Assembly: GCA_963827235.1 (NCBI GenBank)
Contig: CAWHAE010000012.1
Location: 1,344,001 to 1,408,000 of the forward strand
Source of the DNA: an uncultured bacterium
Lineage (GTDB): Bacteria; Chloroflexota; UBA5177; JANWHV01
Length of the DNA stretch: 64,000 bases
Reading direction: 5' to 3'
The notes under the pieces were generated by a model, which had not been told where the DNA came from, did no database searches, and saw only the letters and a program-made list of their open reading frames with translations. The position numbers and the translations under genes were made by a program. Positions 45,358 to 51,844 of this stretch are shown here, in pieces. Positions within the stretch are counted from its first letter, which is position 1, and each line of letters opens with the position of its first letter.

Positions 45358-46116
45358 AGCACCCCGTGCGCGCTGGCGAGAAACGTCGCCTGAGCTCCGG
45401 ACCCTGTCGTGCGAACGACCAAGCGGCTCTACTGGCATTGTAGTGGCTGCAGGCTCACGCGTCCTCGTCACGTGTAGCCAAGTGCCTTCCGTGTGGACCG
45501 TGGGCGGCCCGTGTGATTACCGCTTCATCCGTGGAATAGAATGAGCACGACGCTGATTCTGCTGCCATGCTCAGCGTAGAATGGTGCACGGTTCAAGCGT
45601 AGAAAAAGTACGCTGATCGGGTCTCAAGCGTGGAGACGAGCGCGACCTAGCCGCTGACCTTCAATGGTACGCGAGCGGCGCGAGCCGAAGCCAGCCGCAT
45701 GGGCGGAATCGCGTCCAACAGCCACGAGAGCGTTTCACAGGCCGCTGGAGGGCGGCTCGGGACCGTGGGTCGCCAATACGCTAAGCTATAGCAAGGCTTG
45801 GATTACCATGAGGAGAGTGCGTCGGATGTGCGGTCTACGAGGACTTGGCAAGTGATCACCTTTCCCGTCTTCCATCGACTGGACATTGACAAGTACGCCT
45901 TGTTCCCTGGTGGCGACGGGCGGTCATCAGGGCTTCATGTCTACTTCATGTCTGGCATGACCCTGATTCTTGGATCCAATGGTTTGGGCAAGACAACGCT
46001 CATCACAATACTCTATCGCATGCTGACGGGCCCTTTCGACGTCCCGGCGCTCTCTGGTGGGGGTGCAGTGGGAACCAGCAGCCTGGAGCCCAGGCCCTTG
46101 TCTCCATCTGCTCGAA

Positions 46117-46690
46117 CCAAGACCAAGCCATTGCAGGGACGCTGCCTAGTGGTGATAAGCTACTGGGCTATACCATAGTCCAATATCCCGGTCATCCCCT
46201 CGCTGGCCGCAGCGTCCCCGTGGTACGGCGCTACGGTCGCCGCGAGCGAGGGCAGTGGGTGATCGAACTGCCGGATGGCAGCCGGCAATACCTTCCCGCC
46301 TCCTGGTGTTCGCCGCTCGTTGCGGCAGAAGGAGCGCTTCCTGTGCCCGCATCGTCCCCGGATGAATCGTCCGATGGTGGTGCCCGTCCGCTGCTGAGCG
46401 TGACCGCGCTGCGTGACCTGGCTGCCCTGGTGCGTCGCCTGCAGGAGGCGGCAGCCCCGCGTGGAGAGGAGCAGGGCGATGCAGGGGACGCAGGAGTGGC
46501 CGTGCCCGGAAGCGAACGAGCGGACGGGCGTGGTGAGCAGCGGGAGCGGGGTGGTGGCGTTGCCGAACTGGGAGAGCTTCCAGGAGGCGGACCGGCGCCA
46601 GCTGGTGCAGACCATCCTGCACGTGGCGCGTCGGCAGGTGGAGCAAGCGGGCCCGGCAGACCGACTCCGCGGAAAGTGAGGCAGCCGTGA
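46117..46690 (+). CDS. Body of a DUF5372 (Y4bD/Y4pK)-like gene; its RBS and ATG lie at 49347-49366
   Basis: Frame open from the element edge; TIVQYPGHPLAG, LPDGS...LPASW, LRDLAALV; stop overlaps the recombinase start (GTGA). Confidence 0.7.
46488..46679 (+). CDS. Small hypothetical ORF overlapping the DUF5372-like gene
   Basis: SD AGGAG before ATG; WESFQEADRRQLVQTILHVARRQV helix; ends just before the recombinase. Confidence 0.4.
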   Translation, partial: TQEWPCPEANERTGVVSSGSGVVALPNWESFQEADRRQLVQTILHVARRQVEQAGPADRLRGK

Positions 46691-48948
46691 GCGCGAACAC
46701 AGCGGCAGGCGCGGTGTGGGACCAGGTGGCGGCAGGTACGGCCGATCCCAAAGTCCGGGCCCAGCACCTGGGCCGCCAGGCGCTGATCTACGTGCGCCAA
46801 TCCAGTCCCAACCAGGTACAACGCCACCCCGAAAGCGCGCGCCGGCAATATGGGTTGGTCGAGCGAGCCGCCCAGTTGGGCTGGCCACGCGATCAGATTG
46901 TGGTCATCGATGAGGACCAGGGCAAGAGCGGCGCGGGCAGCGCCGCCAGCCAGGGTCGTGATGGCTTTGCCCGGCTGGCCGCTGCCGTCAGCCTGGGTGA
47001 GGTCGGCTTAGTGCTGGCGCTGGAGGTGGCCCGGCTGGCGCGCAATTCGGCGGAGTGGTATCGCTTGCTCGAACTCGCCGGCTACAGCGGCACCCTGATC
47101 GCCGACGAGGCGACCGTCTACGATCCTCGGCTCTTCAATGACCGCCTGCTCTTGGGCCTGCGGGGAACGATCAGCGAGGTGGAACTGCATTGCATCCAGG
47201 AGCGCCTCCACGGCGCCCGCATGAGCAAGGCACAGCGCGGAGACTTACCGATCCGCCTGCCTGCTGGCTACCTGGCGGACCACGCCGGCCGCGTCGAACT
47301 CGATCCCGACCAGGAAGTGCAAGGGGCGATACGGACGATCTTCGCCCAATTTGAGGGGCTGGGCACCGTCACCGCCGTGCTGCACTTCTTCACCGCGCAC
47401 GGGCTGCTGGTGCCCCGGCGCCGCTGGCACGCCGAGAGCGGGTCGCAGATCGTGTGGATGCGGCCCAGCTACCAGGCATTGCACACGGTGCTCACCAATC
47501 CCGTCTATGCCGGGGCCTACGTCTACGGGCAGCGCGGACCGGCCGCGGATTTGGGGGCGCCAAAGCGGCGCCACCGGTATGCCGCGGAGGAAGCGGCGGT
47601 GCTGCTGCGCGACCACCACCCCGCGTATATTAGCTGGGAACGCTTTCTCGCCACGCGGGCAACCCTGCAGGACAATGCCAGCCAGTTCCCCGCGAGCAGA
47701 GGCGCACCGCGGCGCGGGCATGGTCTCTTGCAAGGCCTCGTGGTCTGCGGCCGGTGTGGCTGCCGCATGCGGCTGCAGTACGGCGACACCAGCACTGCGT
47801 ACGTCTGCATCACGCGGCATCAACGCTACGGGGAGCCGCTCTGCCAGAGCCTGACCATGGACCACGTCGACCGCGCCGTCAGCGAGGCGTTCCTAGCGGT
47901 CATCGCGCCGGCACAGGTCGCGGCGGCCCTGGCGCTGGCGGAAGACGTGGAGCGCGACCGGGCTGCTGCCCAGCGCCAATGGGAGTTGCGGCTGGAGCGG
48001 GCTCGCTACGAGGCCGAACGGGCCTTCCGGCAGTACGACCTCTGCGAGCCGGAGAACCGGCTGGTGGCGCGGGAGCTGGAAGGGCGCTGGAATGGCACGC
48101 TGCGCGAGGTGAGTGCGCTCGAGGCACAGTACCGGCAGGAGCAGGACCGCAGCCTGGCGCCGCTCACCCCCGCAGAACAGACCGCGATCTGGCAGCTCGT
48201 GGGCGACATGCGTGCCCTCTGGGCGGCAACGCAGACGACCATGGAGGATCGCAAGCGCCTGCTGCGCTGTCTCATCCGCGAGGTGGTGCTTCTGCGCGAC
48301 GACCGGCCCAGAGCGACGGGTGGCCTGACGACCATCCGCATTGGCTGGTGCAGCGGCGCCTGGAGCACCCTGCAGGTGCACCGGCCCGGCAGTGGCGATG
48401 CCGCCAACACGCCGGAGGCCGTCCTGAGCCGGATTCGGGGGCTGGCGCAGGACCATGCCGACGATCAAGTCGCCCGGATCCTGAATGCGGAAGGTCTGCA
48501 AACGCGGCAAGGTCTGCCCTGGACCTACCTGCGGGTGCAGCAGGTCCGCCTGCGCCACCGCATCCCGACCGCCTGTCCGATCGTACCGCGCGACGGCGGC
48601 CCTCGCGGCGATGGTCTGGTGCCGGCGGGTACCGTCGCCGCCCAACTGGGCGTGGCGCGATCGGTGGTGGCGGAGTGGTGCCGGTGCGGCTTTCTGCGCG
48701 CCGAGCAGAAGGCGAGACTGGATCCCCGCTGGATCCAGCTCACCGCGGAGGACCGGGCGCGTCTGGACGGGACGCTGGCCGCGCAGGGCTACGGCCAGTG
48801 GCGGATCCGTGACGCCCAGCAGGTGCTCGGGCTGAACGCCGAGGCGCTGTACGCGCAGGTGCGAGCAGGCCAGCTGGTGGCCTATCGCGCGCACGTCGGG
48901 GCGCACTGGGAGTGGCGGGTCGGTCCGGCCACGCCGCCTGAACCGTAA
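46687..48948 (+). CDS. Large serine recombinase (resolvase + recombinase + Zn ribbon + coiled coil + C-terminal HTH-like extension)
   Basis: ALIYVRQSS, EDQGKSG, ARLARN, LLLGLRGTISEVE, LTNPVYAG, LQGLVVCGRCG, PENRLVARELEGRW. Confidence 0.95.
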   Translation: MSANTAAGAVWDQVAAGTADPKVRAQHLGRQALIYVRQSSPNQVQRHPESARRQYGLVERAAQLGWPRDQIVVIDEDQGKSGAGSAASQGRDGFARLAAAVSLGEVGLVLALEVARLARNSAEWYRLLELAGYSGTLIADEATVYDPRLFNDRLLLGLRGTISEVELHCIQERLHGARMSKAQRGDLPIRLPAGYLADHAGRVELDPDQEVQGAIRTIFAQFEGLGTVTAVLHFFTAHGLLVPRRRWHAESGSQIVWMRPSYQALHTVLTNPVYAGAYVYGQRGPAADLGAPKRRHRYAAEEAAVLLRDHHPAYISWERFLATRATLQDNASQFPASRGAPRRGHGLLQGLVVCGRCGCRMRLQYGDTSTAYVCITRHQRYGEPLCQSLTMDHVDRAVSEAFLAVIAPAQVAAALALAEDVERDRAAAQRQWELRLERARYEAERAFRQYDLCEPENRLVARELEGRWNGTLREVSALEAQYRQEQDRSLAPLTPAEQTAIWQLVGDMRALWAATQTTMEDRKRLLRCLIREVVLLRDDRPRATGGLTTIRIGWCSGAWSTLQVHRPGSGDAANTPEAVLSRIRGLAQDHADDQVARILNAEGLQTRQGLPWTYLRVQQVRLRHRIPTACPIVPRDGGPRGDGLVPAGTVAAQLGVARSVVAEWCRCGFLRAEQKARLDPRWIQLTAEDRARLDGTLAAQGYGQWRIRDAQQVLGLNAEALYAQVRAGQLVAYRAHVGAHWEWRVGPATPPEP

Positions 48949-48971
48949 CGTGACGCATCAGGGAGACCGCC

Positions 48972-49295
48972 ATGCCCCAGCCACGCCGCTATCAGGACAA
49001 CGCCGCCAAGCAACGCGCCTACCGCACGCGCCAGGAACAGGCCCGGCGCGAGGAGCAACAGGCCAAGGGACTGCCGCCCGCCCCGCCGTTGCCGACCCTG
49101 CCCAGCCGCGAACGCTGGCAGGCGCTCCTCACCCAGGCGCGGCTGGCCCTAGAAACCGCGCGCGACGAAATGCACGCATATTACGACGACCGGTCCGACG
49201 CCTGGCAGCAGGGCGAGCGTGCGGCGACACTCGCCGAGGAGATCGAGCAGCTGGACGTGATCCTGGAGGAACTTGAGGCAGTGCTATTGCCTTAA
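48972..49295 (+). CDS. Small basic/coiled-coil accessory protein of the recombinase element
   Basis: SD GGGAG; YQDNAAKQRAYRTR basic motif followed by helical acidic C-terminus. Confidence 0.7.
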   Translation: MPQPRRYQDNAAKQRAYRTRQEQARREEQQAKGLPPAPPLPTLPSRERWQALLTQARLALETARDEMHAYYDDRSDAWQQGERAATLAEEIEQLDVILEELEAVLLP

Positions 49296-49315
49296 ACGCC
49301 CAACGCAGCGGCTGA

Positions 49316-49339
49316 CGTGCCCGCTGATAGGCGGGCACG
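49316..49339. other. GC hairpin just upstream of the orphan RBS at the element right end
   Basis: cgtgcccgc-tgatag-gcgggcacg; no U-tract. Confidence 0.6.
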
Positions 49340-51148
49340 CCTCATCAAAGGAGATGCATTCGAATGGGCTCACTGAAGGTTCTTTGCACAGCGTGTGATG
49401 GACAACGCATACAACGCAACCGCAAAGTTGCACTTCAGCCTCGGTGACCACCGGATCGTTGTTGAGCGACGCCTGCGCGATATGGCTCTAGCCTACTTCG
49501 CAGTCGATGGGCGAGAATGTACAGCGCAGGAAGATGATTACCAGCAGGAAGTCGTGCGTCTGGTCGATGTGTGGTCGTTCGGCGATTGGATTTTGCTGCT
49601 TCGCAGCCTAGTGTTCTACTTCGAGGATCGCCGCGCGCTGGTTTGGGATAAATCCGCACAGCGCCAGGTGCTCCGCACGCTCTTGCTACCTGCAGCCACG
49701 TCTCGCAAGTGGGCAGAGGACGAGCGCTCGGTGCTCGAACTGGATAGTCGTGTTCGAAACTTGAGTGCAGCGTTCTTTCGAGAAGAACAAGACGTGGCCA
49801 GAGAAGAGGGCAAGACGGCTGCTGGCGCAGCCGTCATCGCCGAGTTGAAGACGTTGGAGCCGCTCCAGCAAGCAGATGAAGCGAAGCTTGAGGAGTTCAA
49901 TTCGAGGCTTGTCAGCCTTGATGCCGATCGACACCAAGGTCGCCTACGCGTTCTCAAGGCCGAACAAGAACGTGAGAGCCAATACCGCGAGATTGAGCAC
50001 GCCAGACTGACAGCACTCGATGCGAGTTTCCCTAGCAAGTCGGACACGGCTAGGTACATCCTCGCCCAACTCCTATCTGATTAGCACTGTCTGGTTTGTG
50101 GTCACCACGTCCCAGCGGTGGCAGATCTCCTAGAGGAGCGCATCTCAGAGGAGCGTTGCGTGGTTTGTGGCTCTGACTTGTCACAAGAGGAGGCGGACCG
50201 GCCCACCTCGGCAAGCAAAGTCGCGGATCGCCGCGTGAAAGTTGTGACCGGCGGGTTGGCCCCGATTGAGGCCGAGGTAGCCGGCGCTCGTGAACAACTC
50301 GCGGCAGCGGAACAGCACTATGACGGGTGCCTGCGTGAAGTTAGGCGCCTGAACGATTCGGTCATCGCGAGGTCAGCGCGGATGGACGAGTTGATCAAGC
50401 AGCTGCCTCCCGGGGAGGCTCAGCTACATAGGGCCCGACAGGGCCTCGCGCTCCTCCGGGGCCGGCTCGACGAACTCCGCGCGGATCTCGTGCGGCAGCG
50501 TCACGAATTCGAGGCGTTCGTAGCTGACGAGCAGAGAGGGATGGCAGTAAGCTCCGAGCGCATACCGGCCGCGTTCGCTGACTACGCGAAGGAGTTCTTG
50601 TTCGAAGACTCAGAACTCACCTGGTCGCCTCAGCGCGCACAAGTGGGCCAGACGGGCAATGCCGTGGTATATCCGGCCTTTGAGCTTGAGATGACTGGCG
50701 CATCCTTCCCGACGCCTATTCGACGCAGCGGACCAGACGAGGTCTCTGAGAGTCAACGCGAGTTCATCGATCTAGCCTTCCGCATGGCGCTCATTGACGT
50801 CATCGGCGCCGACAGAGTGGGAAGCATAGTCATTGATGCACCGGAAACCTCGCTCGATGCTCTGTTCGTGTCCCGAGCTGCTGGCGTACTGGCCCGATTC
50901 GCGGAACCGGCTCGCGGCAATCGGCTGATTATCACGTCGAACCTGATCGAAGGCCAGTTGATTCCAACACTCCTGAGGCTAGCCTCGACGCCTGATGATC
51001 GCTCGAAACGGCTGGTGAACCTGTTTAAGCTTGCCGCGCCGACGGCAGCGGTCCGCGCATTCGGGGACAGATACGATTCTATTCTGCAGGCTATGCTCGC
51101 GCAGGTTGACAGTGGAGGAGAAGCCCTCAACTCGGCGGAGCCTGTACA

Positions 51149-51844
51149 ATGACCGGTCAAGAGCTGCCCCCCCGTTCGAGCGGAACGCCAACTCAAGCTG
51201 CCGAGTGGTTTGCCACCACACGCCGGCGGGTACGTCTGGTCGTGCTTCTGGATGCCGCTGAGGAGGCCGGTCTCGTACCGATAGACATCACCCGCCTCCA
51301 CACACTCGCGTATTTGTCGAACGTGCTGGCGCCAGTGTGGGATATTTCGGTGCTCGACGGTAAGGTCCTGAAACATCGCGGGGCTCCTTTTTATCCTGCG
51401 TTGCAACACGATCTGGACCGGCTAGTAGGCATGGGCGTTGTGATCATAAGTGGGCTCGGGCACAGCGTTGATGCCGATGGTCGGTGGCGTTTGGAGGGAG
51501 CATATCGCCTTAACCGCGTGTTCGCGGAGCCCGTACTACGGCATCTCGCCGCCTACGATGACGAAAGCCGTCTTGTCGCGTTCGTGCGTGAGCTTGCGTA
51601 TGCCCTGTCGGCACTGGGCGATGACGAGATCACGATTGCTACTCGCGAAGATGCCACATACGCAGATCCACGGGTCAGCGCTGGCAACGTGATCGACTTT
51701 GACGAGTGGCAAAAGGAAAACTATAGCGCGGACGCGGCGCGGTGCGTCGGCCACTTGGTGCCTACCAAGTTCGGCGTTACTCCCGGAGAAAAGTTGCACC
51801 TGTATGTTCGCCATCTGCAGCGGAGGATACAGGGTGGAAGGTAA
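51149..51844 (+). CDS. Hypothetical wHTH-like protein (ABC three-component middle-component-like)
   Basis: ATGA overlap with ATPase stop; RLHTLAYLSN..., GAPFYPALQHDLDRLVGMGVV. Confidence 0.7.
   Translation: MTGQELPPRSSGTPTQAAEWFATTRRRVRLVVLLDAAEEAGLVPIDITRLHTLAYLSNVLAPVWDISVLDGKVLKHRGAPFYPALQHDLDRLVGMGVVIISGLGHSVDADGRWRLEGAYRLNRVFAEPVLRHLAAYDDESRLVAFVRELAYALSALGDDEITIATREDATYADPRVSAGNVIDFDEWQKENYSADAARCVGHLVPTKFGVTPGEKLHLYVRHLQRRIQGGR

Follow-up and report, generated by a model that had tools for sequence, protein, structure and literature searches.

A serine-recombinase transposon of Chloroflexota that probably parts an accessory gene from its translation start

The window analysed here, a stretch of 64,000 nucleotides from an uncultured bacterium of the Chloroflexota (contig CAWHAE010000012.1, positions 1,344,001 to 1,408,000), carries at 46114-49376 a discrete element of 3,261 bp. 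We take it to be an autonomous, insertion sequence (IS)-like transposon that is moved by its large serine recombinase, presumably via an excised circle as the established chemistry of these enzymes would have it. Directly upstream of the recombinase gene lies a small gene, 1a, which has no start codon of its own, and a Shine-Dalgarno (SD) sequence and start codon in frame with it are found at the opposite end of the element. Comparison with relatives supports the view that the crossover point of the circle's attachment site (attP) has the translation-initiation region of 1a on one side and the body of the gene on the other, and, judged from sequence, 1a is probably translated from the circle only. 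An earlier note on this DNA had pointed to the arrangement, which is confirmed here as an observation; the structural interpretation is well supported by comparison, whereas circle formation, translation through the junction, translational coupling and a role of 1a in integration are steps that we infer rather than observe.

Ends of the element and the divided reading frame

The genome to which the window belongs (7.98 Mb in 21 contigs) holds a second copy of the element on another contig (G000:C9:987949-991211), with 100% identity to the window element over 3,263 nt. The junctions read ...tgctc-GA-accaag... on the left and ...ctcact-GA-aggttc... on the right in the window copy (copy 1), and ...aaatc-GA-accaag... 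and ...ctcact-GA-gatcta... in copy 2, the flanks of the two copies being unrelated and sequence sharing between element and flank being limited to the dinucleotide GA. Because GA is all that both copies share with their flanks (on the right of copy 2 it is followed by G), the crossover core is GA, at 46114-15 and 49375-76, and not GAA as had first been proposed, a correction that leaves the joined reading unchanged. A core of this size is that expected of a serine recombinase. Insertion is simple, with a 2-bp crossover common to the ends and no longer target duplication (judged from the two copies and their restored target open reading frames, ORFs): removal of the element restores both target reading frames, that of an ATPase gene in the window and that of a DDE_3 transposase gene around copy 2 (L002:451-1503), which is rejoined across a ...SWLNQIE-IYFS... 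motif. Among relatives the same element occurs with differing flanks (L055/L056, L053/L054 and L022/L023/L024), and since right flanks, when translated from the core, give the C-termini of transposases, the ends are not set by the start codon alone. Two contigs from sequencing runs begin at 46114. As read from the sequence, the arms at the left and right ends form an imperfect inverted repeat, with 6 of 11 bases matching.

The 1a frame is already open upstream of 45899 and runs to 46690. In the ORF listing GTG 46220 is the first ATG, GTG or TTG that follows the preceding stop. No canonical start therefore stands ahead of the conserved PGHPL motif, which bears out what had been said of the N-terminal motif of this protein; the positions first given for the initiation signals and for the overlap with the recombinase gene are likewise correct (AAAGGAG 49347-49353, ATG 49364-49366, GTGA 46687-46690). 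To follow selection along the frame, 46 loci were aligned and codon pairs with a single difference were counted in each frame. Over 46114-46444 the synonymous fraction was 0.41-0.80 in the 1a frame against at most 0.35 in the other two, over 46444-46534 no frame had a distinct synonymous excess, and over 46534-46654 the excess moved to the frame of a second small gene, 1b (0.45-0.55, versus 0.12-0.21). The joined ORF of 195 aa described in the earlier note is therefore open throughout, as stated there, while only about its first 120 codons are selected in that frame, and a single long protein of 195 aa is ruled out by the switch of the selected frame.

The per-codon table places the beginning of this selection very near the core. 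Codons 46115-46133 are near-invariant as DNA and may be read as a recombinase-binding arm, whereas from codon 46136 onward amino acids are kept and third positions vary in the manner of wobble. Glycine is found at codon 46136 in 41 of 46 sequences (328 synonymous versus 51 non-synonymous pair differences), leucine at 46163 in 43 of 46, and glycine at 46166 in 45 of 46 (639 versus 19). Amino-acid selection in 1a thus begins no more than 7 codons from the core, and therefore translation must start upstream of 46136; the interval from the core to 46136 contains no start codon in the 1a frame.

What lies on the other side of the core in the circle was compared across a set of 80 metagenome loci and one genome locus, together with the window and copy 2. 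The left end is present in 76 loci, 40 of which continue for 2,900 nt or more beyond the left core; a recognisable right end was found in 36 of these 40, and all 36 possess an in-frame start no more than 6 codons from the core. Together with L051 and L063 these loci collapse into 31 distinct right ends, which are related sequences, and here joining the ends in silico, as the earlier note had suggested, gave an in-frame start in 31 of 31 and an SD-like motif 5-17 nt upstream in 30 of 31, compared with 6.8 and 1.9 in mononucleotide shuffles. A codon starting 13 nt ahead of the element's last base is ATG in 18, TTG in 10 and GTG in 2; the remaining right end has another codon there and an ATG that ends at the core. 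Among the 30 NTG cases the first base is never C, the start varying only between ATG, TTG and GTG. In some lineages a TTG stands hard against the SD, and there a second ATG or GTG ends at the core with GAGG or AAGG 9 nt upstream. The right end could not be resolved at L013, where the recombinase is broken, at L033, a short contig, or at L057, where it is deleted. Directly after the recombinase stop, L066 (3170-3302) and L071 (3060-3330) carry two or three TTGCCTCACG repeats.

The same arrangement recurs well outside this set. A scan of Chloroflexota genomes found relatives in 5 of 401 and in none of the 4 genomes of the same genus; the weak matches L094 (G187:C54) and L095 (G338:C573) represent a far more distant lineage with a DUF5372 gene and a recombinase, lying antisense in reverse-transcriptase genes of the group II intron type at a CFD-x(I/V)xH motif. 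In L094 a right-end ATG, which overlaps the TGA stop of the recombinase, is in frame across a GA core. A search of plasmids by tblastn added L099, on plasmid pRCCGE525b of Rhizobium jaguaris, which has the same gene order, a reverse-transcriptase gene as its target, an AA core and a right-end ATG in frame that is preceded by a G-rich tract. The gene table of PLSDB, which is incomplete, has no coding sequence under its DUF5372 match; downstream of the match come a 52-aa ORF and a 'recombinase family protein'. Joining the ends of L094 and L099 likewise yields an in-frame ATG, and three lineages with differing end sequences thus keep the same split start. A Cupriavidus plasmid carries a further member of the distant lineage (L098), whose recombinase is broken by an IS256-like insertion; with the plasmid loci taken in, the insertion motif of this lineage is written CFD-x(I/L)xH.

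Table 1. Features of the element and of the gene that it interrupts (positions in the window)
Feature	Position	Strand	Evidence
Interrupted host gene, 5' part, ending in the core; SMC/LmuB-like P-loop ATPase	45798..46115	+	Pfam AAA_23 4.7e-6; weak PADLOC LmuB/PtuA matches
Left GA crossover dinucleotide (attL core)	46114..46115	.	Copies 1 and 2 share sequence only from GA onward
Left-end arm, doubling as gene 1a codons 2-7; putative recombinase-binding arm	46116..46135	.	Near-invariant bases, few synonymous changes at 46115-46133
Gene 1a, selected part; DUF5372-related, predicted SH3-like beta-barrel, linker and helix; without own start codon	46115..46478	+	Synonymous fraction, model, homologues
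1a frame tail; open, not selected as protein; TGA overlaps recombinase GTG	46479..46690	+	Synonymous fraction 0.12-0.22 over 46534-46683
Gene 1b, 66 aa, overlapping the 1a tail in another frame	46479..46679	+	Own SD GGAGAGGAG 7 nt upstream of ATG; coding signal 46534-46654
Large serine recombinase, 753 aa, GTG start	46687..48948	+	Pfam Resolvase, Recombinase, Zn_ribbon_recom; PHROG 95
ORF3, 107-aa cargo gene	48972..49295	+	No Pfam family; weak phrog_4068 3.8e-4
10-bp perfect GC-rich hairpin between ORF3 and SD	49316..49339	+	Minimum free energy -32.3 kcal/mol for 49290-49377, z -2.0; no T-run after
SD-like AAAGGAG, 10 nt upstream of the right-end ATG	49347..49353	+	SD-like motif in 30/31 distinct right ends
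Right-end ATG, three codons and first base of the next codon, ending in GA core 49375-76; also putative right recombinase-binding arm	49364..49376	+	In frame with 1a across the core
Interrupted ATPase gene, 3' part	49377..51152	+	Frame continues from the 5' part without the element; PADLOC LmuB 9.4e-7, second piece

Protein 1a, its link to the recombinase and competing explanations

Homologues of 1a are numerous (80 at E<=1e-3) but poorly annotated. The window protein has no Pfam match even at E<=10, and a search of its whole genome with PF17342, the DUF5372 profile, gave none either. Conversely, PF17342 is matched by 16 of 54 aligned homologues at E<=0.01 (best 2.3e-7) and is precomputed on 5 of the 80 homologue matches, so 1a is a divergent relative of DUF5372; the label 'DUF5372-like' given to it at first thus holds through transitive homology and not through a match of the window protein itself. 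No family was found for 1a in Pfam, NCBIfam, PHROGs or PADLOC, recombination-related and DNA-binding repressor families included, and a sequence profile search of the PDB returned only a chance match (E 0.16). The alignment of 54 sequences has 17 invariant columns. With the homologue alignment as input, AlphaFold2 gave a model with a mean predicted local distance difference test score of 70.8, in which a confident small barrel of five strands (residues ~17-60) is followed by a disordered linker and a helix (95-112). The first predicted strand spans residues 17-21.

Gene callers systematically mis-annotate this family. Where elements sit in DDE_3 targets, the sequence upstream of integrated 1a is the +1 frame of the transposase gene and contains no conserved start, which explains the odd conserved N-termini of the type '...STAVGSTW...' in database entries of 1a. 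We considered whether N-termini of the form '...STAVGSTW(L/R/P)(N/K)QDQ' could stem from the right end, that is from circles or tandem copies, and rejected this, as they are the +1 frame of the DDE_3 target motif. The entries P0002, P0009, P0017, P0052, P0063 and P0073 have such artefactual N-termini or begin at internal codons.

The other end of the 1a frame meets the recombinase gene. The 1a stop overlaps the recombinase start in all 29 distinct elements (ATGA in 27, GTGA in 2), the overlap reported earlier for the window element being one case of this. The 1a frame is open across 1b in 20 of 22 representatives, against 10.1 expected from synonymous reshuffling of 1b, and in the other two the tested stretch passes the 1a stop itself; for the third frame the count is 1 of 22, with 4.4 expected. 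A tail that is held open without amino-acid selection fits a delivery of ribosomes to the recombinase start, and with its last ~70 codons unselected up to the ATGA/GTGA overlap it lends support to the coupled recombinase translation suggested earlier. Nine short elements have their recombinase stop immediately ahead of the junction start, at 14 or 17 nt from the right end, so that their circles leave no room for a terminator and transcription and translation can cross attP.

Several points weigh against circle-only translation. The spacing of 10 nt between SD and ATG is at the long end of the usual range. L009 has no SD-like motif at its right end, no right end was found at L071, and the end proposed for L066, of the same subfamily, is followed by just 10 nt of flank. 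For 29 of the 31 right ends the search pattern itself called for NTG. In the start region the TGG belongs to the imperfect inverted repeat with the left arm, and recombinase binding alone could therefore conserve the TG, leaving the first base, the SD and the frame as the only features that argue for a start. In the long variant represented by the window element a strong hairpin stands 8 nt before the SD, on the path of a transcript to the junction; proteins might bind there, or the hairpin might act in the manner of a terminator. A scan for sigma-70-like promoters over the linear sequence 45600-49700 gave 0 sites, the scan not being built for the promoters of this phylum. Empty sites were not encountered: the left flank of copy 2 has no second copy in its own genome, and for the left flank of copy 1 the 4 same-genus genomes have no orthologous gene, the single match spanning only 45512-45634. 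Among sequencing runs, 20 hold part of the stretch, none more than 0.25 of its words, and the Logan contigs of the 4 runs examined at 90% likeness are short pieces of relatives with neither a right-left joint nor an empty-site bridge, and are uninformative on circles and expression. A Foldseek search of the PDB with the 1a model gave generic SH3-like, eS4 and PsaE-type matches, none at E<=0.001. Finally, internal codons that could start 1a in the integrated state occur among the homologues: of 46 sequences, 14 have GTG or ATG at codon 46142 and 27 have ATG at codon 46175. By eye, other relatives that bear ORF3 have differing hairpins at the same place as that of the window element.

These internal codons are the core of the strongest alternative, in which 1a is made from the integrated element, through an internal or near-cognate start (in the window CTG 46142, ATA 46175 or GTG 46220) or by re-initiation after the target ORF, and in which the right-end NTG and purine tract are kept only as a recombinase-binding site or as coding sequence for the recombinase C-terminus. 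Gene callers do use the internal positions, and interrupted DDE_3 ORFs stop 5-13 codons inside the element. Yet the internal ATG is absent from the window element and from 19 of 46 relatives, amino acids are selected upstream of both positions (G at 46136, T at 46139), and a start at 46175 would cost most of the first predicted strand. As to the right end, the mirrored TGG speaks for a binding site, and the SD-like tract falls within the last codons of the recombinase in short elements, but the same tract is conserved in long elements, where it is non-coding; the first base of the start is never C, and two distant lineages that have differing ends, one of them with an AA core, still place an ATG in frame. 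On balance we consider translation from the integrated element unlikely.

It is also conceivable that the junction start is real and serves mainly to load ribosomes for the recombinase through the overlap, with the 1a protein dispensable or structural. Such a leader would be the translational counterpart of the junction promoter that reportedly drives TnpX on Tn4451 circles, and both the unselected final ~70 codons and the overlap in 29 of 29 elements would suit it. A mere leader would need neither the strong conservation of the N-terminal ~120 residues, with its invariant columns and a synonymous fraction of up to 0.80, nor the small barrel that is confidently predicted, and the recombinase and 1b carry SDs of their own; we hold this explanation to be quite improbable. 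Least credible is a split that is incidental or disabling as in SSV, 1a having a circle-stage role outside recombination control, for instance in maintenance, transfer or host interaction, or integrated copies being crippled until another copy supplies 1a in trans: the att site of SSV-type elements does sit in a gene fragmented by integration (PMC8371274), two genomic copies make supply in trans conceivable and 1a matches no recombination-related family, but in all three lineages DUF5372-type genes lie directly upstream of the recombinase gene and overlap it, which argues for a joint function, and the elements are only 2.7-3.4 kb long and have no replication or transfer genes. Translation of 1a from the circle alone is thus the reading that we retain.

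Target genes and the remaining content of the element

The GA core ends 57 of 62 distinct left flanks of relatives (L007-L086 range). A strict [LMWFY][ND]xxE motif stands at the core in 50 of these flanks, a looser form in 6 and none in 6, the last including copy 1 in the window and L064/L065. Ten left-flank ORFs compared with Pfam DDE_3 all matched, 9 of them above the curated cut-off, and of the 146 profile positions the match reaches as far as 123 in nine and 121 in one. Most relatives therefore sit in genes for IS630-type (DDE_3) transposases, and those of the distant lineage in group II intron reverse-transcriptase genes. The glutamate of the motif, at the insertion codon, is presumably the third catalytic residue of IS630-type transposases. 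With nearly all insertions hitting this one DDE_3 codon, the element is a parasite of other transposons. L064 and L065, which have a TC core, occupy the same DDE_3 motif (here NPIE) but face the other way, and this is what one would expect were polarity set by the core dinucleotide. In the window the target is the LmuB/SMC-like ATPase gene, in which an in-frame TGA (50082-50084) separates the ORFs 49395..50084 and 50118..51152 downstream of the element; with the insertion and this stop codon the gene may be a pseudogene.

The recombinase has the domains of a large serine integrase, with matches to PF00239 Resolvase (1.1e-14, residues 32-186), PF07508 Recombinase (5.8e-16) and PF13408 Zn_ribbon_recom (7e-10), and to the PHROG integrase family phrog_95 (5.7e-56). 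R37, Q38 and S39 are invariant across 27 sequences, and S39 is by its position the putative nucleophile. A C-terminal extension of ~230 aa follows the zinc ribbon and coiled coil, and a weak match to the excisionase-type HTH_17 family, below the cut-off (E 0.0013), covers residues 707-741 (48805-48909). Several relatives (L009, L019, L024, L058 and L013) have broken recombinase genes, the ORFs measuring 73-564 aa, which shows that some members of the family are in decay.

Gene 1b is defined by the motif LPxWESFxxxDRxxLVxxILxxARRQV, which is present in all but two (L009 and L036) of the 44 loci scanned; in 33 of these 42 a distance of 11 nt separates the 1b stop from the 1a stop downstream. Its own SD and ATG, seen in nearly all loci, count against a programmed frameshift from 1a into 1b. 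Like 1a it has no family in Pfam, NCBIfam, PHROGs or PADLOC, and neither protein resembles described directionality factors in the Pfam, NCBIfam and PHROG libraries. ORF3 is confined to longer relatives; elements of 2,916-2,950 bp lack it, and other lineages have different ORFs in the same slot. Weak partial matches to the ORF3 region (72-90% identity over 41-266 nt) occur at three places in the genome of the window (G000:C17:213761-214026, C13:6319-6412 and C10:313678-313718; L003-L005), and cargo resembling ORF3 is therefore also present elsewhere in it.

Related systems, a model and its consequences

Circles of the IS3, IS21, IS30 and IS110 families create junction promoters when their ends are joined, and Lyras and Rood are said to have described in 2000 a junction promoter that drives TnpX on Tn4451 circles. 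Expression that is activated at the junction by a promoter is also on record for Pcirc of ICEclc and P3'end of ICEKp1 (PMC13023037). As in these systems (Tn4451/Tn4453, IS circles and integrative and conjugative elements), the joined ends of the present element would switch on recombination genes and thereby favour re-insertion, and like Tn4451 it has a large serine recombinase. In contrast to them, where genes are intact and a promoter is built or positioned, here an SD and start codon would be joined to the body of an ORF, a switch at the level of translation and of whether the protein exists at all.

Genes split at att sites have precedents. The 'suicidal' tyrosine integrases of the SSV type have their att site inside the integrase gene, which is split on integration and whole only on the circle, and recombinases of this kind are called exclusive to archaea in a review (PMC8371274). 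Our element resembles SSV in having the att site inside one of its own genes, with the start region of 1a parted from the body on integration, and differs in that the split gene is the accessory 1a, which loses its initiation region and four codons, while the serine recombinase ORF stays intact and the hosts are bacteria. In elements of the type of mycobacteriophage BPs, integration removes the 3' end of a repressor gene and gives a stable, active prophage form. This integration-dependent immunity places attP within a regulatory gene whose free and integrated products differ (PMC4557955). Unlike the case of BPs, it is the 5' initiation region that is separated here, and the gene should be silenced as a result; we are dealing with an IS-like transposon and not a phage; and 1a matches no DNA-binding repressor family and is predicted to have an SH3-like fold. 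For phage large serine integrases, small accessory proteins encoded beside the recombinase gene are the expected setters of direction. The integrases of phiC31, Bxb1 and SPbeta share with the present recombinase the same set of domains (Resolvase, Recombinase and zinc ribbon) and a 2-bp crossover, whereas ours is a minimal element of 2.7-3.4 kb for which many copies of the target exist.

The remark in the earlier note that its author knew of no description of this for such elements needs to be qualified: the splitting of a gene at att is known from SSV and BPs, while for bacterial serine-recombinase elements our literature search, which reached few subscription journals, found none in which attP parts an accessory gene from its start. 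That search, with the same coverage, found nothing on DUF5372 or PF17342.

We propose the following model. The right end holds the SD, the start and the first four codons of 1a and the left end the remainder, so that in the integrated state 1a would be without initiation signals; 1b and the recombinase could still be produced from read-in or internal transcripts, since each has an SD of its own. Excision would join the ends, and a transcript that crosses attP would allow 1a to be translated. Ribosomes on 1a would then traverse the open, unselected tail and terminate at the ATGA/GTGA overlap, raising recombinase synthesis. In this way the circle would report its own state through a protein made only there and through more recombinase, both of which would favour re-insertion of a circle that does not replicate. 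The 1a protein itself might promote integration, perhaps by acting as a cofactor or by opposing an excision factor, for which 1b would be one candidate. Taken as a whole, the proposal that these elements are a widespread and undescribed class of minimal transposons (at least in Chloroflexota and Alphaproteobacteria), hyperparasites that insert precisely into codons of conserved motifs (that of the third acidic residue of DDE_3 and the 'FD' motif of group II intron reverse transcriptases) and sense their topology by translation, the ORF tail being kept open solely to bring ribosomes to the recombinase start and 1a flipping the recombinase from excision to integration and perhaps countering 1b, is tentative, and we would put it at somewhat less than an even chance.

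There are consequences of a practical kind. Gene callers misplace the starts of 1a, either at internal codons or by adding N-termini from the +1 frame of the target. Recombinases that recognise short conserved coding motifs may also serve genome engineering. For the biology of mobile DNA it is of interest that other transposons and group II introns are put out of action by these elements at codons that are conserved and probably catalytic. If the reading given here is true, 1a would be a gene translatable as a unit only on the circle, and DUF5372, so far a domain without an assigned function, would gain a testable role as a serine-recombinase cofactor. It would be relevant, too, to the question of how direction is set by transposon-like large serine recombinases in the absence of a directionality factor of the phage type, and would add a third route by which bacterial mobile DNA may sense whether it is free or integrated, beside junction promoters and att sites within repressor or integrase genes.

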